Shown here: positions 2,923-32,327 of the stretch, piece by piece
Numbering within the stretch: position 1 is the stretch's first letter
Layout of the letters: the number at the start of each line of letters is the position of its first letter
NCBI GenBank assembly: GCA_007376395.1
Contig: VMGE01000007.1
Span: 8,037-72,036, forward strand
Origin: Microgenomates group bacterium Gr01-1014_5
GTDB taxonomy: Bacteria; Patescibacteriota; Microgenomatia; UBA8517; UBA10165
Direction: 5' to 3'
Length of the DNA: 64,000 nt
Notes under the pieces: generated by a model
Told to the model about the DNA's origin: nothing
What the model saw: the letters and a program-made list of their open reading frames with translations, nothing else
The model's database searches: none
Made by a program: the position numbers and the translations under genes

Positions 2923-2993
2923 AGGGATGTCGTTCAGTGGTAGGACACCGGTCTCCAAAACCGGTAACGAGTGTTCGATTCACTCCACCCCTG
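2923..2993 (+). tRNA. tRNA-Trp (anticodon CCA)
   Basis: Acceptor AGGGATG/CACCCCT with one A-C mismatch at 5:68, D-arm GTTC/GGAC, anticodon stem CCGGT/ACCGG with loop CTCCAAA, T-arm GAGTG-TTCGATT-CACTC. A TATAAT box lies at 2907-2912. Confidence 0.8.
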
Positions 2994-4454
2994 CAAGTCC
3001 GAACGCACTTCGGGTTGAAGTAGTATATCGAAGGGCTTTCTGAAGCTAAACTCCAAGTTTTTATCCCTCAAAAGTAGGTTCCAACCGACACTTCTTATCA
3101 AATCTCGTTTTTTCTCATTATTCCCCTTCTCCATAATCTCTCGTGCCTGAAAAGCCGTTTCAAAGAAATTTTCAGCACGTTCCAACCAAGAATCTAAAGT
3201 TCCTTCTCTGTCGTTTGTCTTTTCTTCCAACTCCATTTTTTCTTCTATAAGTTTTTTCTTGTTATCAGCGTATTCTTCTTCTGTGATTCTTTCGTCTAGC
3301 CTCATATTTAGTAAAACTCCCAGTCTCTTGTCAACCTTAGTCTTTTGCTCTTCTAAACGCTTCCTTGTACTAATACTTTCTTCAATTTCTTGACCGTGTT
3401 TTGCTTTTAAAAGCTCTACGCCAAGTTCCCAAACTTCCTTATCAATCGTTATTCGAGACAAATTATTAAATAGCATTCCTTCTAACTCTTGTTCAGTTAC
3501 TCCAGGCTCTTTACAAACTCCCCTTCGCCTGGTGCAACGATAATAAGTGTAGCTTGCGTCTCTATTAGTTCGAGCGTAATGTTTTTCCTTTGTCTCTGCG
3601 GTTATGTAGCACCCACAGGGACACTTTATTAAGCCTTTGTAGGCATGAATCCAACTTTGCTTTCTAGGCACGCCTTTGCCCTTTAAAACAAGCTGAACTT
3701 GGTCAAATAATTCCTTACTTATCAATGGCTCATAACTTCCTTGGTGAAACTCGCCTCCGTGTTGAAATAAACCATAATACAAAGGTCTGGTTAACAATTT
3801 ATACATTGCGCTTTTAGGAATATTTATACCTGTTTTAGTTTTCAAACCCCATTCAACCGATTTTCTACATATCTCTAAAACCGAGGAGTTACCTTTTGCG
3901 TATTCTTCAAACAATCTTTTCACCAAAGAAGCAGTTTCAGGGTTAGGGGCAATATTTCTTGAATTTCCAGCTTTTACGTTTATATATCCCAAAGGTGAAG
4001 CTCCAACATATTCGCCTCTTGCACATTTCTGCCTATTCCCTCTTTTAACATTTGCACTAATTTGTCTTGAAAGGTCGTTTGACATTCCAAAATGCAAATA
4101 AAGCATTACCCTGTTGTCTTCCTGTTTAAATAATTCATAAGGGGTTCTTATTTCTTTTAAGAAGCCGTCATCAATTGCTTGTATAACTCTACCACCGTCT
4201 CTTGCGTTCCTTGCAAGCCTATCAACTTTCCAACACAAAATGCCGTCTGCAAGTTTCTGCTCATACATTACCATTAGCTTTTCAAATATAGGCCTGCCTG
4301 GTTTATATGCGCTCTGCGATTCTTCTAAAATGTCTATTACGCTTAAATTGTTTCTTTGAGCATATTCTTGTAACTCCCTCTTTTGTGCCTCAATTGAGAG
4401 TGCCTGACGGTCTTCACTTTCACTACTCTTGCGACAATAAATTATGTATCTCAT
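2934..4454 (-). CDS. large serine recombinase (resolvase catalytic domain + recombinase domain + zinc ribbon + coiled coil)
   Basis: N-terminus YCRKSSESEDRQALSIEAQ...VDRLARNARD (catalytic Ser). C-terminal CPCGC...YYRC..C zinc ribbon and a Glu/Lys-rich coiled coil. The 3' end (2934-2993) overlaps tRNA-Trp antisense. Confidence 0.85.
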   Translation of the reverse strand: MRYIIYCRKSSESEDRQALSIEAQKRELQEYAQRNNLSVIDILEESQSAYKPGRPIFEKLMVMYEQKLADGILCWKVDRLARNARDGGRVIQAIDDGFLKEIRTPYELFKQEDNRVMLYLHFGMSNDLSRQISANVKRGNRQKCARGEYVGASPLGYINVKAGNSRNIAPNPETASLVKRLFEEYAKGNSSVLEICRKSVEWGLKTKTGINIPKSAMYKLLTRPLYYGLFQHGGEFHQGSYEPLISKELFDQVQLVLKGKGVPRKQSWIHAYKGLIKCPCGCYITAETKEKHYARTNRDASYTYYRCTRRRGVCKEPGVTEQELEGMLFNNLSRITIDKEVWELGVELLKAKHGQEIEESISTRKRLEEQKTKVDKRLGVLLNMRLDERITEEEYADNKKKLIEEKMELEEKTNDREGTLDSWLERAENFFETAFQAREIMEKGNNEKKRDLIRSVGWNLLLRDKNLEFSFRKPFDILLQPEVRSDLQGWSESNTRYRFWRPVSYH

Positions 4455-4612
4455 AAACTAATTGTATTCCTTTTTTACAACAGTCTCCATAAATGCTAGC
4501 AAATTTTGCATTATCTCTTCTGCTTCTTGGTTAGATATCTCTCGACCGTATTTTTTACCAAAAACTAGTTTGGTTTTATTTATCAACGCTGTTTGTTTAT
4601 AAGATGAATTTA

Positions 4613-5101
4613 TCATTCCATGTTTTGGTGTTTGTGAATACCATTGGTACTTCTAAAAGATTTTCTCTTCTTTCGAAACCTGAGATCGTAAGTGAAATAT
4701 GCTGAAGGGTTAGTTCGTATTGCTCCACGTAAGTATTCTTTTTCTGTCTGTAGAAATGCCCAATTTAAAGCTCTTGGCGTATAAGTCTGAGCAATCCATA
4801 ACCAATGCCCATCTTTGCTAGCCCAAGGTTTAAAAAGTTCTTCTAAGAATGCGGAGACTTGGATTGGCGGGGTATCTGATGTACATTGTTTTAATAGGGA
4901 AATAACTTTGGATTTATCCCAACTTAACTCTGAATTAACTCCGTTTTTATAGGCACCATTAACACTTCCATTAACACTAACACTTCCCCATTCCTTCTCT
5001 GATTCTTCTTTTATGTTTTCCCATATCCATTGTTGGTCATCTAAAGATAACGCAGACGATTCGCAAAACCATTGAGGTCTGTTATTATTTTTCGGTTCCA
5101 T
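4613..5101 (-). CDS. hypothetical protein (island cargo)
   Basis: 162-aa ORF downstream of the recombinase on the same strand. No recognisable motif. Confidence 0.4.
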   Translation of the reverse strand: MEPKNNNRPQWFCESSALSLDDQQWIWENIKEESEKEWGSVSVNGSVNGAYKNGVNSELSWDKSKVISLLKQCTSDTPPIQVSAFLEELFKPWASKDGHWLWIAQTYTPRALNWAFLQTEKEYLRGAIRTNPSAYFTYDLRFRKKRKSFRSTNGIHKHQNME

Positions 5102-5286
5102 AAGTTCTGTTTAAAGCTTCCTCTACTAGGCTTTTAAGACTTTTTTTGGAGCTTGCACGAAGCAGTTGAAGCACTTTCCACCACCCGGTATCGATTCGAA
5201 CCTGGAATGACATTTTTTTGTCGACATTCTCTTTGTTCTCATGCATCTTTTTGTTAGTCATTATTATTTTTTAGGCACAAAAAAAC

Positions 5287-5309
5287 CGCCTGCATTTCTT
5301 TGCAGCCGG
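5287..5309 (-). terminator. hairpin flanked by an A/T run (terminator-like for minus-strand transcription)
   Basis: CGCCTGCA-tttctt-TGCAGCCGG, followed by a T-run on the minus strand. No obvious upstream minus-strand gene, so the role is uncertain. Confidence 0.2.
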
Positions 5310-5420
5310 TTCTCGCTTACAAGGCTAAACTCTGACTAACTCGTATTGTAACACAAAGTCGATTTGTCTACAATAAAATAATCGCATGTAGTTTTCAATT
5401 CGGGACTCCAAGGAATATAA

Positions 5421-6248
5421 TTGCTCATGTCCAAGAAAAAGTTATCATCAGAATCTCAAGAAAATAAATTTACCCTTGCTTCTGTATTTAATTCAATTAA
5501 ATACCTGTTTATTTTAATTCTTTTAATCCTTATTGGTTTTGTAAGTTCAGATATAATTAACAAAGAAAAGTCGCAACAAAACCAGTCATCATCGGTGACA
5601 ACAACTGCACCAATAGGTATTGTTTCGCCATCTCTAGAACCTACCTCTCAAATAGACTCCCCCTCAAATAAAATTACAAAAAAGGAAGCCGATCCTATTG
5701 TGAATTGCGGACCAGGATCAACATCGAAACAATATGTTAAAGACAGAAGTAGTAATTGTCCTAATTATGTAGATTGCGGTTTAAATAATAATTCTGTTTA
5801 CACCATGATGCTTAAAACTGAGTGTGCAAAAAAGCATGCTGAAGAAAATTCAGCAAAACAACCTTCTCGCACCGCATCTAATCTTGTTACTTGTGTTGGG
5901 AGTGGTGGAAAAGTTTATAAGTTACCACCTGAATACTGTGATAGAGTTGTTCAACTAAGATTATTGGTGGAACAATCTAAGATTTCTACTCAACAGTCAA
6001 TAGATAATTTAAAAAGGATTGTTGAAGACGGTCAAGCAGCCAACCAGCGCATGCTAGACGAAGTAAAATCTTATCCTACCCCAACTCCTCTACCTAATAA
6101 TTTGTTTGGGGATTGGAAACCCACACCGTTTGAGCCCCCAAAACAGAAATGCTATACAACCTGGGAAGAATACTGTATAGCGCATCCAACTGCCTGTAAT
6201 GCCCCAATATATGGAGATGTTACTTTGGGCTCTCCACCTTGTGATTAA
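5421..6248 (+). CDS. hypothetical membrane-anchored secreted protein, Cys-rich C-terminal half
   Basis: N-terminal TM/signal anchor (YLFILILLILIGFV), a Ser/Thr-rich linker, and many Cys in the C-terminal part. Confidence 0.4.
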   Translation: MLMSKKKLSSESQENKFTLASVFNSIKYLFILILLILIGFVSSDIINKEKSQQNQSSSVTTTAPIGIVSPSLEPTSQIDSPSNKITKKEADPIVNCGPGSTSKQYVKDRSSNCPNYVDCGLNNNSVYTMMLKTECAKKHAEENSAKQPSRTASNLVTCVGSGGKVYKLPPEYCDRVVQLRLLVEQSKISTQQSIDNLKRIVEDGQAANQRMLDEVKSYPTPTPLPNNLFGDWKPTPFEPPKQKCYTTWEEYCIAHPTACNAPIYGDVTLGSPPCD

Positions 6249-6257
6249 ATAAGTTTC

Positions 6258-6536
6258 TTATAATCCCTTTCCGTGAAGGCAATAATCATAATGGATTTTC
6301 ATTTTATCCCTAATGGTCTCACCAACATCACCATCGATAAAACCATCATTAATCACATCCCCTGTTCTGTCAGGATCGGCATCAGCCTTTTGAAAAGATT
6401 CTGAATAGAATTGACCTGTGCTTTTGGTGCAATCCTGTTTAGCCCAAGAAGGTCGAAGTTGAAACCAATAAAACAATCCAGCAACCAGAAACAAAATAAT
6501 TATTAAATACCTATGTTTAATTAGGATTTTCTGCAC
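6258..6536 (-). CDS. hypothetical small membrane-anchored protein
   Basis: 92 aa with an N-terminal hydrophobic helix. Confidence 0.35.
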   Translation of the reverse strand: MQKILIKHRYLIIILFLVAGLFYWFQLRPSWAKQDCTKSTGQFYSESFQKADADPDRTGDVINDGFIDGDVGETIRDKMKIHYDYCLHGKGL

Positions 6537-6555
6537 TGACTAAATTATATAATAT

Positions 6556-6924
6556 TTATACATTTGTTTTACTAATCTTTTCTTCTATTTCATCTAACCT
6601 TTTAACAACATTTGATGCGTCATAAGCATCTAACCAGCACCTTGTTAAAAATCCCATGGAGCTTCCCACAGGCACGGGCACACCTTCAGACCAAACGGCA
6701 TTAATCACTTTACCTAAGAACCTTTTAACATCTTCTGGTGTCTCTAGCTTAATAGTTGATCCGTAGAAGCCCTGTAAAGCTCTATTGCGACCACCTTTAA
6801 TGCTAGCTACCATTTTAGCTTCATTGTTTGCAGGATCATGCCTGAAACAATAATCCTTACCTCTTTGTGTATGGGCTTTGCAAGGGTTACTGTTAGATAG
6901 AGTTTGTTTGCAACTTGTTGGCAT
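6556..6924 (-). CDS. hypothetical protein with N-terminal Cys/His cluster (zinc-finger-like)
   Basis: CKQTLSNSNPCKAHTQRGKDYCFRHDP at the N-terminus. Confidence 0.35.
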   Translation of the reverse strand: MPTSCKQTLSNSNPCKAHTQRGKDYCFRHDPANNEAKMVASIKGGRNRALQGFYGSTIKLETPEDVKRFLGKVINAVWSEGVPVPVGSSMGFLTRCWLDAYDASNVVKRLDEIEEKISKTNV

Positions 6925-6927
6925 GAG

Positions 6928-7239
6928 TTATTTAGTTGACCGCATGCCTAGTATTGGAGGCTGCAACCCTGTTTTTCTAGTAATTTCCAGTAATTCTGGT
7001 ATTTCCTGCTCCTCTAAAATTGGTACACTTGTGCAATTCAAACCAGTCATAAATCTAATTACATTAGATGTCTTACATTCTGCACAAATTCCATGTTGGT
7101 ATTTTTTGCATTTACCCAGTTTATGCTCCTCTGTACACATACAAGGATCTTCACCGCAAAAGCAAAACCACATAACCTCATCCTTATTTATAATGCTAAC
7201 TTTCTTTTCAATATTTCTTAACCTAGTTGATGTATTCAT
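6928..7239 (-). CDS. hypothetical Cys-rich small protein (zinc-ribbon-like)
   Basis: CFCGEDPCMCTEEHKLGKCKKYQHGICAECK cluster; 103 aa. Confidence 0.35.
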   Translation of the reverse strand: MNTSTRLRNIEKKVSIINKDEVMWFCFCGEDPCMCTEEHKLGKCKKYQHGICAECKTSNVIRFMTGLNCTSVPILEEQEIPELLEITRKTGLQPPILGMRSTK

Positions 7240-7379
7240 AACTTAGTTGTAGGGGGTACCCAGATTTCCACCATTTTCCAACAATTTTGAAGCTACAAGT
7301 TTTTGTCTGATAGTTGGCAATTCAGATATTATCTCATAAGCATCAATGTTATAATTTGCCTTTGTCAGTATGAGCAGTT

Positions 7380-8129
7380 TTGTATATGAATTTTGACACA
7401 ACATTAGATTATAATTTCCAAAAATACCCGTGGTTTTCCCCACATCTTGTTGTGATAGCAACTAATAGGCTGGCTAAATTATACGGGAGCAACATTGAAA
7501 ACAAGCGAGAGTTCAAACTTGCCAGAGAAATGTTTATCGGAGCAGTTGCACTATTGGGTGCCTATGAATTACATATCGACAACAAATACATTATGCAGCC
7601 AAATTTACAAAGTGCTTCGCCTGATGTAGTTGCAGTTAAACAAACAGAAGCTCCTCCTTCACCTTTGTTATTAGAGGTAACCCAATTGGAAATAGTAGAT
7701 ATGAACGACTATTCGGATGTTTCAGATGTCGTCGAATTTTTAAAAAAGACAAAACTTTCTAAAAAAAAGAGTTATGACAACAAAACACTAATCGTTTGCG
7801 TGATAAATAAGCGAATACAAATAAATAGATTGAAAATTTCCGAAGAATTAGAGAAAGTTAAGCCTAAATCAACCATCTACGTTTTAGGCAAGATTCGAGG
7901 AGATAATGATAAATGGGCAATCTTTTCCCCATATCCTGACCCAACGAAGTTTGCAATTTACAGCGTCTCAGAAACAATGAAGAAATATAATATACCCACC
8001 CCTTTGAGGTTGCATAAAGGTACAGCAAGGAAAATATCTTACGAAAAAACTCATCCAGAGGTAACCACAATCTACGACATATTTAACCTTAAAGAGTCAG
8101 ACCTGGAAAAATATCGGAGAACCAGCTAG
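7380..8129 (+). CDS. hypothetical protein
   Basis: 249-aa ORF. It overlaps a 72-aa antisense ORF (7243-7461), and the true start may lie downstream. Confidence 0.3.
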   Translation: MYMNFDTTLDYNFQKYPWFSPHLVVIATNRLAKLYGSNIENKREFKLAREMFIGAVALLGAYELHIDNKYIMQPNLQSASPDVVAVKQTEAPPSPLLLEVTQLEIVDMNDYSDVSDVVEFLKKTKLSKKKSYDNKTLIVCVINKRIQINRLKISEELEKVKPKSTIYVLGKIRGDNDKWAIFSPYPDPTKFAIYSVSETMKKYNIPTPLRLHKGTARKISYEKTHPEVTTIYDIFNLKESDLEKYRRTS

Positions 8130-8252
8130 TGAATTTATATAATGTTAACTAGCATAAAACACACTGTTTGCCCGATAATAAGTTCCAACACTGTATACTA
8201 AGGCCTGCTAACGTAGTTAATGTACTCTACAAGTCCATGGTAAAATTGTTCT

Positions 8253-8861
8253 ATGCCTGAAGTCCCCGATTCTCTTGATTCTGCAGAAATGGCTAGGTCA
8301 TTTGCAGAAAGAATTTTCTCTAAATATCCCAACACGACTGAGTCTCTCAAATGGTTAAAGGAAAATGGGGCAGAATTTATAACCCGGGTTGTAGACTTTA
8401 ACGCTGTTGTCGCCAAATTAAATGAGGTTATTGAAAATCCCAGTTCGGTAAATGAGCAGTATAGGGGTGAGATTGACCAATTGGTTAGTGTTGCGGGTGG
8501 ACATATCCCCATGCTTCAAGAAGCTGAATTTGAAACCAATGAAAAATTTCGTCATTCTCCTGCTCTTAAAGCCTTCTTCCAAGGCAAAAGGGAGTTTGGA
8601 TGGGCTGATGAAGAATACGACCCTAATAGACCTGCCAGATCAGCAATGGGTATATTTCTAGAGGGATACGGGAGATACGTTGGCCTGCGACTAACAAAGG
8701 AGCCTGAACAGGTTGCAAAAATCCAAAAAGCGTTCGTTTATGCATTTGAAGCTGTTCTTTTAGCAGAACATCCAAATTCTGAACTACTTGGAGATATCAG
8801 AGAATGGATCAAGGGAGATGCCGACAAGTTTTCTGAACCCATCCGCCAGTTATTGAAATAG
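8253..8861 (+). CDS. hypothetical protein
   Basis: 202-aa ORF, acidic, no recognised motif. Confidence 0.4.
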   Translation: MPEVPDSLDSAEMARSFAERIFSKYPNTTESLKWLKENGAEFITRVVDFNAVVAKLNEVIENPSSVNEQYRGEIDQLVSVAGGHIPMLQEAEFETNEKFRHSPALKAFFQGKREFGWADEEYDPNRPARSAMGIFLEGYGRYVGLRLTKEPEQVAKIQKAFVYAFEAVLLAEHPNSELLGDIREWIKGDADKFSEPIRQLLK

Positions 8862-8922
8862 ATTCCAACATAGTTTACCAGGACCTGCTTTTCTGCCCTA
8901 TAGTTGACATACCTTCTTTTTA

Positions 8923-9309
8923 ATGTTAGTATTTTCCAATATGCTACGTGCGGAAAGAAATTTTGTTGTTCCTGAAGAGCTTGCAACTAGTGTGTATAGA
9001 GGTATACATACAGGCAGTGGAGTTGGTAGATCGTGGGAGCGCGAACTTAGAGAAGCTCTTAAAGAACATTTAGGTCTTGGACTTACGGCAACTACTTCTC
9101 CCGAATACACAGTAATAGGTGTTCTGCTTATTAGTTACATAACATCTTCAACACATTTAATTGGAATGTTGGAGGGGAGAAATCCTGAAGTTGTTCAGAC
9201 ACAAGTTCGTGAATATCTTCAGTTCAATCCATTAGAGACTCCCCAAGAAACAGTTGAAAGATTGTTAAATATTGCTATAGATAATAGTCAGAGGATTAAT
9301 TCTCGTTAA
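8923..9309 (+). CDS. hypothetical protein
   Basis: 128-aa ORF. Confidence 0.35.
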   Translation: MLVFSNMLRAERNFVVPEELATSVYRGIHTGSGVGRSWERELREALKEHLGLGLTATTSPEYTVIGVLLISYITSSTHLIGMLEGRNPEVVQTQVREYLQFNPLETPQETVERLLNIAIDNSQRINSR

Positions 9310-9349
9310 AAACTACGGGTGCATGATCCGGTTACTGTAATAAGTCCCG

Positions 9350-9850
9350 GTGCGGTTTACCAAACCCTGCTTAACCTTGAATGGTATACTTTCTTCTGTG
9401 AATAATTTATACAAAAATTCTAAATTTTTAACCCAAGCTGAGTTTGAAAAAATTGAAACAGCACTCGAAAGGGCTTGGGGCAGAGATACAACTTATCCTG
9501 ATACAAAAGACTCCTGGTCTGAAGAAAATAAAGCTTATGGCCAATGCGCCGTCACTTCATTAATTGTCAACGACCTATATGGCGGAAAAATGATTTATGA
9601 CAAAAATAACTTCCATATTTGGAACGAACTTCCTGACGGATCACAACAAGACTTCTCAAGAAAACAATTTTTGGATGAAAGAAATTTTGTGATTTATAAA
9701 TACAAAACAAAAGAAGACGTGCTGTTTGATGAAACCGGGACAAGGACACAAATCAGTGATAGATATAAACTTCTTAAGAAAAAATTTCAGGAAGAATATA
9801 AAACTCGTTTCAAAACTCACGCGCTAGCTTCGCTAACTTGTGTAAGGTGA
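9350..9850 (+). CDS. hypothetical protein (possible YunG-like fold)
   Basis: SW...NKAYGQCAVTSLIVNDLYGGKM resembles small conserved hypothetical proteins of the YunG type; weak. Confidence 0.35.
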   Translation: MRFTKPCLTLNGILSSVNNLYKNSKFLTQAEFEKIETALERAWGRDTTYPDTKDSWSEENKAYGQCAVTSLIVNDLYGGKMIYDKNNFHIWNELPDGSQQDFSRKQFLDERNFVIYKYKTKEDVLFDETGTRTQISDRYKLLKKKFQEEYKTRFKTHALASLTCVR

Positions 9851-9932
9851 GTTGAGAGAACCTGTTTTGAAACAGGTTCATAGTAAGTTGACTTATATCC
9901 TAGAGTAATGTAGACTACCTACTCTAGCTATT

Positions 9933-10619
9933 ATGATAACTGAAATTAGAAACGTTCAAGAGGATTATTTTATCAGAAGTAAAGAGGGCTTTGACCTTGC
10001 TTCTCCTCGAACACAACGCGCCTTGGAAGTTATGTGGAAACTGGCTTCTATTCCAGTGCCTCAAACTCCTCAGTTGAGTGGCGAAATAGACATTAAAGAC
10101 TTATTCACGGATTCGTCACTTATAGTTGACTTAGAAATATTAGAACAAGCTGGTCTTGTCACTCAAGACGCCGCACACCGAAGAAGAAAACGACTGGTCG
10201 AAGGGTTGGGTAAGGTTTTACACCCAGAGGGCACAGAAAATACTATTTTGATAGAACGTCTTCCCAAAGAACAAGGTTTGGGGTTTATTCTAACTGCAAG
10301 ATTTCTCGAAGTTGAAGATACTAACCAACTGAATTCTTCGGGCGTAGAAAGGCTTGATCACATCAAATGCGACAAAATGACTTTAATACTGATAGATAAA
10401 AAATATACCGTGTCTTTACAGCAAATAATTCTCGACCCGCGTTCACATCGCTATATCCACGGGACGGACAGAACATGGGTACCATTAGATTCAGTCGAAC
10501 CTGAATATAAAGATAAAAAAATTACATCAAAAGATATTAATATTATGTTGACTCTTTTAGCTGAAGGTCTTTTTTCGGGTTCTGTAGTTGGCAAAGCGCG
10601 GTCAATTCGGCTAGCATAA
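9933..10619 (+). CDS. hypothetical protein
   Basis: 228-aa ORF. Confidence 0.4.
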   Translation: MITEIRNVQEDYFIRSKEGFDLASPRTQRALEVMWKLASIPVPQTPQLSGEIDIKDLFTDSSLIVDLEILEQAGLVTQDAAHRRRKRLVEGLGKVLHPEGTENTILIERLPKEQGLGFILTARFLEVEDTNQLNSSGVERLDHIKCDKMTLILIDKKYTVSLQQIILDPRSHRYIHGTDRTWVPLDSVEPEYKDKKITSKDINIMLTLLAEGLFSGSVVGKARSIRLA

Positions 10620-10625
10620 CACTCA

Positions 10626-11171
10626 TCAGGCAACTGTCATTAACCTGTCCATACTTCTTTCAAATTTATGCACCTCAGCCTCCCCAACTTTCTTCGATAC
10701 TTTATTCCTCTCAAGAGCATAATGACTATTAAAAAATCCCAGTAAGGCCACCCTTGCGTCATTTGTTTTTTGCGGGAAGTCCCGTAATGCCTTCGTGTTA
10801 TCAACTCCAACAAGCTGAATTGCCGAGATCAAACACAAACGCAACCCTGCCAGTGTTTCAACTTCCGGGGTTACTCTTAAGCCTTGAATCCAATATTTAT
10901 TCAACACTGCCCTGCTTGCCTGAACCACCTCACTTTCTATGATGACATATCTTTTTACTGGAACCGCAACAGGCCAAGTGCTATTAGAGGAATCCATAAT
11001 AAATGAAGGGTTTTGGAGGAGAAGTTCTTGAGCCTTTGTAACAAAAAGTAAACAGGCTCCTTCAATTCGTCCCATTCGTCGTGTGTGGTCTACTCTTAGA
11101 CCTTGTAAATAGTACTCAGCAGAGGGAAAAGCCGGAAAACCTTTGAGGGTTACTCTTTCAGCTACGGCCAT
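10626..11171 (-). CDS. hypothetical protein with internal repeat (YYLQGLRV.../YWIQGLRV...)
   Basis: 181-aa ORF with two similar halves. Confidence 0.4.
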   Translation of the reverse strand: MAVAERVTLKGFPAFPSAEYYLQGLRVDHTRRMGRIEGACLLFVTKAQELLLQNPSFIMDSSNSTWPVAVPVKRYVIIESEVVQASRAVLNKYWIQGLRVTPEVETLAGLRLCLISAIQLVGVDNTKALRDFPQKTNDARVALLGFFNSHYALERNKVSKKVGEAEVHKFERSMDRLMTVA

Positions 11172-11235
11172 TTAAAAGCATTCTACCAGACTCTTGCTCT
11201 AAGTGCTATACTTGAGGAAAGGAGGCGATACATGG

Positions 11236-11433: not shown

Positions 11434-11596
11434 AGATACAGTTAATCGAGCTGTAGATTTTTGAGAAATTCGCGGAAGTTCGCGCCCGCCTCATGCTTTA
11501 GGTAAAAAACGGGTTCCGAAGCCGGCAACAGGAATTACGGCCTTACGCACCTTTGACATTGTCTTTCAGTATATAGGTGTGATATAATACTTGACA

Positions 11597-11620
11597 AGAG
11601 CTGGTAAAAAAGCTCTTTTT
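11597..11620 (+). promoter_or_regulatory. hairpin plus T-tract immediately upstream of secE (attenuator/terminator-like), with TTGACA at 11591-11596
   Basis: AGAGCT-ggtaaaaa-AGCTCT followed by TTTTTCTTT, lying 8 nt before the secE ATG. Confidence 0.3.
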
Positions 11621-11627
11621 CTTTGCA

Positions 11628-11814: not shown

Positions 11815-12609
11815 ATGGCAGATCAAGATATAAGCAAACTCAACGAAGAAACAACACCCGAAGCACCTCAAACTGAGGAAACTCCGGTTGTGGAAAATCC
11901 TACAGATGTAGTAGCGCCGGTAGATGAACAACAAGAAAGCGCATCTGTAGAAGAAATTAGGCCAGTCGAAGATATAGACGAGCCGGCAGATGCAGGAGAA
12001 ATAGAAGCTCCTCCAGAAGCAATCGAAGAGCGCGGATCCGGAAAAAAGCTTAAAGGGCATATCGTTATCACCAAAAGCAATGATCCTAACGGCCGCTGGT
12101 ATGTCGTGCACACAACTTCAGGTCATGAAGCACGGATTGCTGAAAATTTAAGACAAAGAGTCGAAACAATGGGGCTTGAGGATAAAATCTTAGAAATTCT
12201 TATCCCCACCCAAGACCGCGTTGTTATCCGCTCAGGGAAAAAATATACCATCAAAGAAAAGATTTTTCCGGGGTATTTGATTATTAAAATGATTATTACC
12301 GACGAGGCGTGGCTTGCTGTCCGCACAACTCAAGGAATTACTGGATTCGTTGGAGCAGGTACAAAACCGACTCCTCTTTCTGAAACAGAAGTAGCCAATA
12401 TTGAAAAATTTGTTTCAGCCCCAGCGGCTCGCTATAAAGTCCGGTTTTCTGTTGGCGAGGCTGTTAAAATTACAGATGGACCTTTCTCGCAGTTTTTGGG
12501 AACAATCAACGAGATGGATGAAGCCCGCGGGAAAGTTAAAGTATTGGTTTCTATTTTCGGCCGTGAAACACCGGTTGAATTGGATTTCTTACAGATTGCA
12601 AAAGTTTAA
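11815..12609 (+). CDS. nusG: transcription termination/antitermination factor NusG (with ~90-aa acidic N-terminal extension)
   Basis: NGN domain (RWYVVHTTSGHE) and C-terminal KOW (GEAVKITDGPFSQFLGTINEMD). Conserved synteny. Confidence 0.9.
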   Translation: MADQDISKLNEETTPEAPQTEETPVVENPTDVVAPVDEQQESASVEEIRPVEDIDEPADAGEIEAPPEAIEERGSGKKLKGHIVITKSNDPNGRWYVVHTTSGHEARIAENLRQRVETMGLEDKILEILIPTQDRVVIRSGKKYTIKEKIFPGYLIIKMIITDEAWLAVRTTQGITGFVGAGTKPTPLSETEVANIEKFVSAPAARYKVRFSVGEAVKITDGPFSQFLGTINEMDEARGKVKVLVSIFGRETPVELDFLQIAKV

Positions 12610-14925: not shown

Positions 14926-14951
14926 TGTACGATATATTAATATATCGTACA
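14926..14951. promoter_or_regulatory. 26-bp perfect palindrome copy 3 (TGTACGATATATTAATATATCGTACA)
   Basis: Identical to copy 2; lies 3 nt after the rplL stop. Confidence 0.6.
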
Positions 14952-14956
14952 TTAAA

Positions 14957-14988
14957 CAAAAATCCTGGCTATTTAGTCAGGATTTTTG
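14957..14988. terminator. bidirectional intrinsic terminator between convergent rplL and the ATP-grasp cluster
   Basis: AAAAATCCTG-gctatttagt-CAGGATTTTT: a 6-8 bp stem flanked by an A-run on one side and a T-run on the other. Confidence 0.55.
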
Positions 14989-14990
14989 TG

Positions 14991-15317
14991 TTACACACCG
15001 TAAATCTTTGCTTCTAAAAACGTTTCGTCTTCATCCCGAATTTGAAAAAACATTTTTCCTTCACGCCGCTGGGTCACAAGTAACCCAAGTTTTGCCAGCT
15101 GTACCACCGCCCCTTCCAACTGGTCTTCCTCGCAAACATCACTTAACAAGCGGCAAATAACAACATAGCGCAACCCTGCAGGTTCGCCATTCACTCTTGG
15201 CGCTGAAGCATTAAATACCGTCTCCAAGATCTCTCTTTCTAATTCCCTTAAATTCCCGTATAACGCTTCGTCCAACACAGGGAAAGCTCCACCTATGTCT
15301 GCGTTAATTTCTCTCAT
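14991..15317 (-). CDS. hypothetical 108-aa protein, last gene of the ATP-grasp cluster (candidate substrate or partner)
   Basis: Start overlaps the stop of the upstream ATP-grasp gene (ATGA). No recognised domain. Confidence 0.45.
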   Translation of the reverse strand: MREINADIGGAFPVLDEALYGNLRELEREILETVFNASAPRVNGEPAGLRYVVICRLLSDVCEEDQLEGAVVQLAKLGLLVTQRREGKMFFQIRDEDETFLEAKIYGV

Positions 15318-32169: not shown

Positions 32170-32327
32170 CTGAAATTAACGGGGTAAAGGACGAAGGGTT
32201 CAATGGCGCTCTTCGCCATATACAATAATGTTCACTTTAGAGCGAAGTAAGCCATATGAATCTGCGATTCATATTCCCAGCACCCCGACTTTGACTTCAG
32301 AGAGTGCCTGGAATATAATTACCACAA

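Follow-up and report, generated by a model that had tools for sequence, protein, structure and literature searches.

The 64,000-nt stretch of DNA analysed here, hereafter the window, comes from contig VMGE01000007.1 (positions 8,037 to 72,036 of the forward strand; assembly GCA_007376395.1) of Microgenomates group bacterium Gr01-1014_5, a groundwater bacterium of the Patescibacteria (Candidate Phyla Radiation) known from metagenome-derived sequence. Near its left end, an intact gene for tRNA-Trp is followed by a 6.9 kb island that opens with the gene for a large serine recombinase (LSR) on the opposite strand. An earlier note on this DNA had pointed out that the two genes overlap, and this observation stands: ARAGORN and Rfam both recognize the tRNA, and the last 60 nt of the 506-aa open reading frame (ORF) at 2934-4454, which carries LSR domains, are antisense to it.

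The limits of the island are set by comparison with the closest relatives, a population represented by loci L021-L024 and L026-L028 (at least six assemblies with identical proteins, found by exact-protein look-up with rpsU). Their genes run M50, tRNAs, Fuseless, rpmG, TrpR-like and tRNA-Trp on the left, followed by genes for proteins of 134, 247/253, 228 and 182 aa, rpsU, an NTP-transferase, secE and nusG. Against locus L022 of this population, homology (blastn and alignment) is lost at the 3′ end of tRNA-Trp (2995) and regained at 9887, with flanks of 85-92% nucleotide identity on both sides by blastn; the island is therefore 2996-9886, with about 13 ORFs including the LSR, and blastn returns it as one uninterrupted block specific to the window. 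Its GC content of 0.371 is the lowest among 115 sliding 6.9-kb windows of the 64 kb (mean 0.431), and its genes are absent from all 10 of the more distant relatives found via NusG (71-81% aa identity). The proposal that foreign DNA has used tRNA-Trp as its attachment point is thus borne out by a base-exact left edge at the target gene, the deviant base composition, a presence/absence polymorphism among close relatives, and sister LSRs that also lie at tRNA-Trp.

The island is shorter than the approximately 8 kb first suggested, which would have reached rpsU. Homology to the relative resumes at the promoter of the gene 9933-10619, and this ORF and 10626-11171 are 80 and 71% identical in amino acids to the 228- and 182-aa genes of the LSR-less relative, in which rpsU is 100% identical; on this sequence evidence all three are resident host genes and not cargo. 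The premise that tRNA-Trp normally directly precedes secE also fails for this clade, because in all relatives that have both genes they are separated by rpsU and 2.4-4.5 kb of variable genes. The region from tRNA-Trp to secE is hypervariable across the clade.

Table 1. Features of the island and of its junctions (positions in the window)
Feature	Position	Strand	Evidence or remark
tRNA-Trp (CCA anticodon), intact; attachment target	2923-2993/2994	+	ARAGORN; Rfam tRNA, 60.3 bits
Left junction (attL region)	2934-3045	.	Overlap of LSR 3′ end and tRNA plus first ~50 nt of island DNA; register conserved in sister loci
LSR, 506 aa	2934-4454	-	Resolvase PF00239, 4e-19; Recombinase PF07508, 7e-14; Zn_ribbon_recom PF13408, 24.6 bits
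LSR partner, 52 aa	4458-4616	-	Stop 3 nt before LSR start; predicted two-helix hairpin
Primase-polymerase C-terminal-domain protein, 162 aa	4613-5101	-	Family of 172 representative clusters
First gene of LSR operon, 58 aa	5085-5261	-	Antitox_RHH, E=0.094; start/stop overlap with next gene
Protein with N-terminal membrane anchor and Cys-rich extracytoplasmic part, 275 aa	5421-6248	+	Translation; no Pfam, PHROGs, PADLOC or NCBIfam match
Protein with N-terminal membrane anchor, 92 aa	6258-6536	-	Translation; weak N-terminal match in LSR locus L121
Protein with N-terminal CxAxTxxGxxCxxH knuckle, 122 aa	6556-6924	-	Translation; no Pfam, PHROGs, PADLOC or NCBIfam family match
Cys-rich protein, 103 aa	6928-7239	-	Translation; no Pfam, PHROGs, PADLOC or NCBIfam family match
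Conserved Patescibacteria hypothetical protein, 249 aa	7380-8129	+	38 homologues
Hypothetical protein, 202 aa	8253-8861	+	33-nt repeat copy upstream; no significant Pfam, PHROGs, PADLOC or NCBIfam match
Hypothetical protein, 128 aa	8923-9309	+	33-nt repeat copy upstream; no Pfam or PHROGs match
YunG-domain protein, last island gene	9350-9850	+	PF24585, 7.5e-27; 33-nt repeat overlaps annotated GTG start
Right junction interval	9851-9886	.	Hairpin GAACCTGTTT-TG-AAACAGGTTC; no attR recognizable (blastn, alignment, repeat searches)

The recombinase, 100% identical to the NCBI entry ‘recombinase [Microgenomates group bacterium Gr01-1014_5]’, belongs to a family with more than 1,200 relatives in a large protein database, and among the integrases of cultured phages none is more than 30% identical to it. 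PF00239 spans residues 4-148, and in a 39-member alignment the motif Y-C-R-K-S-S with the catalytic S10 is near-invariant, as is C307 of the zinc ribbon, whose other cysteines (C278, C280 and C314) are invariant. The PF13408 score lies slightly below the cut-off of 25.3 bits; relatives carry this domain in precomputed annotation. Judged by its architecture and by the catalytic and zinc-ribbon residues that it has kept, the product is a large serine recombinase.

The tail of the LSR gene runs as the reverse complement of the tRNA, entering at its 3′ end and stopping at a TGA within the D-loop (final 20 codons …LQGWSESNTRYRFWRPVSYH before the stop). A stop-free run of 20 antisense-tRNA codons has a probability of about 0.38 by chance, and the single case is not significant. 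Its recurrence across the family is far beyond chance. With a profile of the LSR family, 160 loci were collected from metagenomes and IMG/VR: the LSR stop codon falls inside an antisense tRNA in 30 of the 79 loci in which the LSR 3′ end is complete, and about eight more LSRs read through one. By an independent criterion, an antisense tRNA lies at the LSR 3′ end in 32 of 84 loci, against 0.7 expected from tRNA density. The overall figure is thus 32-40 of approximately 80 loci. The tRNAs concerned represent at least 13 isotypes (Trp, Gln, Gly, Asn, His, Ser, Pro, Asp, Arg, Leu, Val, Lys, Ala, Tyr and Thr). In the alignment, the C-termini share the motif …KP(F/Y)D(I/V)LL(Q/K)P..R(S/T)(D/N)(V/M/L), followed by residues read from antisense tRNA, including (D/E)-S-N-P, which corresponds to the antisense T-loop GGTTCGAAT, and in many members F-W-R-P, which corresponds to the antisense Trp anticodon loop. 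Where Trp, Gln and Asn loci were read by eye, the codon phase of the junction with respect to the tRNA end is constant (…NT^G-C/…, i.e. tRNA …N73-C-A^, with ^ marking the junction).

The LSRs nearest to that of the window come from similar settings. Those of L011 and L013 (66% identity), in other Microgenomates, overlap an antisense tRNA-Trp adjoining rpmG by 61 and 52 nt; their cargo differs, and at L013 the element likewise measures about 7 kb. Elements of like size at L013, L189 (~5.6 kb) and the P0008 locus (~5 kb) carry LSRs that are 58-66% identical to that of the window. Within 5-7 kb, sister elements encode Cro/CI-type helix-turn-helix (HTH), Phage_rep_O, winged-HTH and small-terminase-like genes (GP3_package in L013, Terminase_2 in the P0008 locus), a gene pattern that resembles that of phage satellites. 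Other loci are IMG/VR viral contigs of 30-60 kb that end at an LSR, about 30% identical to that of the window, together with tRNA-Gly, and one of these contigs has further host tRNAs beyond that point. The LSR of L189 (58% identity; L189 10001-11587), whose element also encodes a 942-aa SMC_N-like protein and a Cro-type HTH protein, ends inside a protein-coding gene of 179 aa beside recA, which shows that not all members of the clade are directed to tRNAs. Two LSRs with non-tRNA C-termini had been considered as possible unintegrated forms retaining the attachment site of the free element (attP): L189 was set aside as integrated in a protein-coding gene, and L029 (40% identity, on a viral contig) gave no interpretable site.

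The tRNA itself is 70/72 identical to that of L022. An A-C mismatch at acceptor pair 5:68, which the earlier note had read as a possible scar of a recombinase-supplied tRNA end, is indeed present (5′-AGGGATG…CACCCCT-3′). L011 shows perfect pairing (AGGGGTG…CACCCCT), and L022 has a U6:U67 mismatch in place of A5:C68 (AGGGGTG…CTCCCCT). C68 is common to all three and both relatives have G5, so that the deviant base is A5, which belongs to the host-side 5′ half that no element could supply; the mismatch is therefore not an element scar and represents a point change (G5-to-A). Separately, tRNA-Trp (2923-2993) is approximately 90% identical, D-arm included, to that of the distant LSR-bearing host L011 (6948-7019), while the tRNA-Trp of phylogenetically closer, LSR-free hosts (L005/L006/L008/L010) is far more divergent. 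Target-sequence filtering by the recombinase and tRNA exchange are two possibilities.

Four closely spaced genes on the minus strand form an operon that ends with the LSR; ahead of it come, in order, a possible ribbon-helix-helix (RHH) regulator, a primase-polymerase C-terminal-domain protein and a two-helix partner. Iterative searching found homologues of the partner in 68 of 80 LSR loci, in 43 cases no more than 150 nt from the recombinase gene, and a profile search extended the family to more than 211 proteins of 55-66 aa from several phyla, with no Pfam domain. The AlphaFold2 model of the window protein is a confident two-helix hairpin (predicted local distance difference test score, pLDDT, 91.4), with no match to Pfam, PDB sequences or PDB folds. 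Known directionality factors of LSRs act on the coiled-coil of the integrase and several of them are small proteins, for which reason a candidate accessory or directionality factor is probably the most economical reading of the partner. The next gene upstream belongs to a family in which, among 39 aligned members, Prim-Pol occurs in four and PriCT_1 in four. The long members tested match the window protein solely through their C-terminal ~110 residues, and we therefore take it to be a stand-alone C-terminal domain of Prim-Pol/PriCT_1 primase-polymerases, likely the remnant of a former replication module; a homologue adjoins the LSR in L127. The weak RHH similarity of the first gene hints at a possible ribbon-helix-helix regulator.

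The remainder of the island is largely without recognizable function, as the earlier note had stated, with the exception of the YunG domain at 9350-9850 and the primase-polymerase domain just described. Apart from the LSR and YunG, no island ORF has a Pfam or PHROG match at E≤0.01, and no virion, lysis or packaging family was found. The cysteine clusters and membrane anchors noted before are evident in the translations, whereas the suggested defence functions find no support in PADLOC, which gave only two non-significant matches among the cargo (E=0.004 and 0.019) and no defence system; NCBIfam likewise gave nothing significant. An inovirus was rejected because no ORF has the size of Zot/pI or any such match. 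The 122-aa knuckle protein was considered as a small terminase subunit (TerS) and rejected on present evidence, having no similarity to the TerS-like protein of L013. Of the gene set typical of elements like phage-inducible chromosomal islands (PICIs), the island holds an integrase, a replication-associated domain and the weak RHH hint, and no TerS-like gene.

Among the right-hand genes, the 249-aa protein 7380-8129 has a confident AlphaFold2 model (pLDDT 86.7) and no PDB fold match. A 33-nt repeat (8177-8209, 8857-8889 and 9339-9371; 70-76% identity, sharing …TTTACC/TATACT…CCTGCT) lies 30-65 nt upstream of three consecutive genes, and could serve them as a common promoter or operator, or else mark the boundaries of cassettes. 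Promoter and terminator scans did not rise above shuffled expectation.

The attachment sites of the island were sought by several routes. Copies of the tRNA 3′ end (16- and 25-mers with up to 3-6 mismatches) were absent from the window, L011 and L013-L015, and in the window no match to the 16- or 25-nt tRNA end at ≤3 mismatches offers the distal repeat typical of Islander-type elements. Exact 11-mers revealed no direct repeat ≥11 nt of the tRNA end in 39 sister loci, among them L013 and L112, whose host genes place the far end inside the locus. Smith-Waterman comparison of the left junction with the whole island, in direct and inverted orientation, gave nothing better than shuffles; neither the imperfect inverted repeats that had been suggested nor direct repeats link the two ends, and the island has no recognizable attL/attR pair. 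Serine integrases need an identical core of only 2 bp between their sites, and the missing repeats are therefore weak evidence. Their absence, here and from all 39 loci, favours strand exchange at the very last bases of the tRNA and fits the short core of a serine recombinase.

The right junction can only be bracketed (9851-9886), because the 33-nt trailer that follows the distal repeat of L022 is missing from the window; attR may have been lost. A few bases before this junction, at 9838-9843, an independent Logan assembly of sample SRR8863434 splits into two contigs, possibly reflecting population heterogeneity.

The unoccupied site that had been expected in sibling genomes, tRNA-Trp directly followed by secE, cannot be obtained, because no genome of the clade has the two genes abutting. 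Nor did a true empty site emerge from a NusG scan of genome contigs, which led only to distant relatives with different filler genes, or from exact-protein searches (TrpR-like, SecE, rpsU, Fuseless and L11), which returned the same strain, L019 (a strain at 92% identity on a contig too short to show the site) and one relative population with another insert. In that population, 1.35 kb with two ORFs (134 and 247/253 aa) takes the place of the island, flanked in L022 by a 16-nt direct repeat, TTCACTCCTCCCCTGC, that copies the tRNA 3′ end exactly (7276-7291 and 8593-8608); the same tRNA-Trp insert is seen in L021, L023, L024, L026 and L028. It is a second, independent insertion at the tRNA-Trp site. 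Its tRNA-proximal flank matches the LSR 3′ end of L011, in register, at 18/36 nt, which is suggestive only, and an LSR stump within the insert was rejected on negative scores of the family hidden Markov model beyond the tRNA. Either another kind of element uses the same site, or the LSR clade is able to carry a short tRNA segment.

Taken together, our data make it likely that 2996-9886 is a small integrative element placed at the 3′ terminus of tRNA-Trp by its own LSR, and possibly immobile now. According to this model, a large clade of LSRs, which occurs in Patescibacteria and in further environmental bacteria as well as in their phages, would have adopted the 3′ ends of tRNA genes as attachment sites, with the attP core lying within the last codons of the LSR gene. 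Strand exchange would take place at, or a few bases from, the tRNA 3′ end, around …G73-C-A, leaving the tRNA host-encoded and intact; in the integrated state the LSR ORF would run on through the antisense tRNA to a chance stop, here the TGA of the D-loop, so that the host would contribute the distal 10-100 nt of the ORF. The rest of the island would be accessory cargo. From the lack of virion and packaging genes and of a recognizable attR, we infer that this copy is either non-autonomous, of the satellite or mobilizable type, or no longer mobile, just as we infer the role of the partner.

Several observations weigh against this interpretation. Neither an excised form, nor an empty site, nor recombination activity was observed, and the locus of the closest relative is itself occupied; if an LSR had made the insert in L022, the crossover would lie inside the tRNA. 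The missing repeats count, weakly, in the same direction, and with no attR found, the right end is defined by comparison with a single relative population only. GC content is slightly higher in the right-hand genes (7380-9850), at 0.389 against 0.366 on the left, and copies of 7380-8129 also occur outside LSR elements (L190, L192, non-LSR contexts), so that the island may be composite. In such a case an LSR element of ~2996-7300 would stand beside a block, 7380-9850, that arrived separately or is older, variable host DNA. Gene orientation flips at 7240-7380, the 33-nt repeat precedes only the three right-hand genes, and the hypervariability of the region in the whole clade would suit a layered origin; conversely, a 43%-identical homologue of 7380-8129 lies inside the LSR element L112, the 6.9 kb form a single window-specific block, and repeat searches of the island found no internal junction, tRNA fragment or repeat to mark a second boundary. 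We regard a composite origin as rather doubtful, and it is compatible with LSR-mediated insertion, the two not being mutually exclusive.

Two other histories were considered. The island might be the decayed stump of a temperate phage of 30-60 kb from which a deletion took the structural genes together with attR. Such a history, which we consider unlikely, would be in keeping with the ~30%-identical LSRs that end viral contigs at tRNA-Gly, with the missing attR and L022-type trailer, and with a stand-alone primase C-terminal domain in place of any complete regulatory/replication module, but the closer LSRs (58-66%) sit in small elements, no ORF matches a PHROG or Pfam virion, lysis or packaging family, and the LSR and its partner are intact. 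A prophage remnant, which the earlier note had entertained, is accordingly possible but unproven, there being no virion or packaging gene detectable with Pfam or PHROGs. Very improbable, in our estimation, is an ancestral region deleted in the relatives, with a recombinase domesticated, for example, for programmed rearrangement: a single LSR-less relative population serves for comparison and attR is undetectable, yet the boundary coincides with the exact tRNA 3′ end, the GC content is deviant, ten more distant relatives have no island gene, and this LSR clade is found in viral contigs as well as at 13 or more different tRNAs, where the cargo is unrelated.

Other differences from the relatives were seen in the same stretch of chromosome. 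The spacer between rpsU and secE is polymorphic, holding an NTP-transferase gene in L022 (10198-11085) and a gene for a 360-aa FHA-domain protein in L019 (148-1300); that of the window (11434-11627) has neither, with ~120 nt of shared flank. A perfect palindrome of 26-27 nt, TGTACGATATATTAATATATCGTACA, stands right after rpmG, the TrpR-like gene and rplL (2413-2439, 2857-2883 and 14926-14951), with a diverged copy at the same place in L022, and might terminate transcription in both directions or be an operator-like element peculiar to this genome. Between two of its copies and adjoining the island, the TrpR/YerC-like gene 2441-2848 has only 39% aa identity to its L022 counterpart, where its neighbours reach 88-97%, and no DNA-level homology across the gene; this looks like an allele or cassette swap. 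The relatives carry a gene for a 494-aa MATCAP-domain protein between rplL and an ATP-grasp/7TM-transglutaminase cluster (L021 14500-15984, L027 5880-7364) that is missing from the window (site 14970-14991). An 86-nt segment after tRNA-Thr in L022 (6125-6210) is a 91% match to 32194-32279 of the window, just after tRNA-Pro, and may be a short mobile or repeated element tied to tRNA 3′ flanks. NusG (11815-12609) has an acidic, low-complexity N-terminal extension of ~90 aa, and aligns with relatives only from residue 54-70 on.

Beyond the single locus, we tentatively advance a joint reading that falls somewhat short of probable: that a large, undescribed LSR clade, abundant in Patescibacteria, in other uncultured bacteria and in the phages of both, has converged on tRNA 3′ ends of at least 13 isotypes, sites classically occupied by tyrosine integrases, with attP in the 3′ coding end of its own gene, a swap of the protein tail on integration, and a partner of ~55 aa. 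Integration would replace the C-terminal tail of the LSR with residues encoded by the antisense tRNA, so that the proteins of the free and the integrated element would differ, and the integrated gene would come under convergent transcription from the tRNA. The two-helix partner may represent a novel kind of accessory protein or directionality factor. In mycobacteriophage BPs, attP lies inside the repressor gene; should the tail swap prove true, it would add to BPs a second known case in which integration remodels a phage protein.

For inserting DNA in one direction only, genome engineering relies mainly on serine integrases. A natural clade that reads the 3′ ends of tRNAs, which are conserved throughout the living world, would add new specificities to those known for attB (the chromosomal attachment site) and would offer a system in which to ask how an LSR reads a structured, near-universal target. 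The locus also shows very small Patescibacteria genomes gaining accessory genes in a hotspot that has tRNA-Trp on one side and the secE-nusG ribosomal cluster on the other, and the LSR with its small partner provides a marker pair for finding mobile elements and prophages in Patescibacteria.

The closest match in architecture is with the phage-type large serine integrases (phiC31, Bxb1, TP901-1, A118 and SprA of SPbeta, along with the staphylococcal Ccr proteins), which share the succession of Resolvase, Recombinase and zinc-ribbon domains with a long, charged helical insert, the position of the recombinase at the element edge and the lack of long flanking direct repeats. The window LSR is remote from them in sequence (<30% identity to any cultured-phage integrase); of its domains, the N-terminal one alone has a match among solved structures (TP901-1 Int, E=4e-6), and matches to Ccr are weak and far sub-threshold. 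It differs in that its ORF ends inside the target gene. In layout, the island resembles the tRNA islands of tyrosine integrases (P4-like, pSAM2, Islander), with integration at a tRNA 3′ end, an adjoining integrase gene, an intact tRNA and variable cargo. Those enzymes belong to another superfamily, and their islands duplicate the 3′ segment of the tRNA distally, which is seen neither here nor in the 39 sister loci.

The nearest characterized analogue is phiRSM, a filamentous phage whose small serine recombinase is reported, in work by Askora and colleagues from 2011 that PMC7192596 cites, to integrate it into tRNA-Ser. This system likewise pairs a serine recombinase with the 3′ end of a tRNA gene as attB, over a core of ~13 nt identical to the tRNA end. 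Its Int is reportedly a resolvase-like ‘S-Core’ protein, short and lacking both the Recombinase and the zinc-ribbon domain, and the phage is an inovirus, whereas the island has no Zot-like morphogenesis gene.

Serine integrases have been described as not targeting tRNA genes (PMC7192596). The same study placed 14 of 297 islands with serine integrases (S-Int) in t(m)RNA genes by computation, adding that ‘experimental proof will be required’ (Mageeney et al. 2020; TIGER), a preprint on tycheposons lists LSRs in 27 of 937 elements (bioRxiv 10.1101/2020.12.28.424599), and a 2026 provirus survey again found RNA targets to be preferred by tyrosine integrases (PMC13626063). Like the window island, the TIGER S-Int islands and the LSR tycheposons are predicted LSR-mobilized elements at tRNA genes, reported as rare; neither PMC7192596 nor the tycheposon preprint describes a dedicated LSR clade, an overlap of ORF and tRNA or a conserved partner protein. 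Our literature search, of limited coverage, found no account of a tRNA-dedicated LSR clade, and an earlier description elsewhere is possible. PICIs and PICI-like tycheposons are comparable in size (~7 kb), in their combination of integrase, regulator and replication-related gene and in the lack of capsid genes, and the sister elements add small-terminase-like genes to this likeness; the window island differs in having no detectable TerS, capsid or redirecting gene, a serine rather than a tyrosine integrase, and no known helper phage. Overall, the element has the look of an ordinary small integrative island, while its enzyme system is an unusual and apparently undescribed variant, set apart by the targeting of tRNA ends, an ORF that ends inside its target and a conserved hairpin partner.

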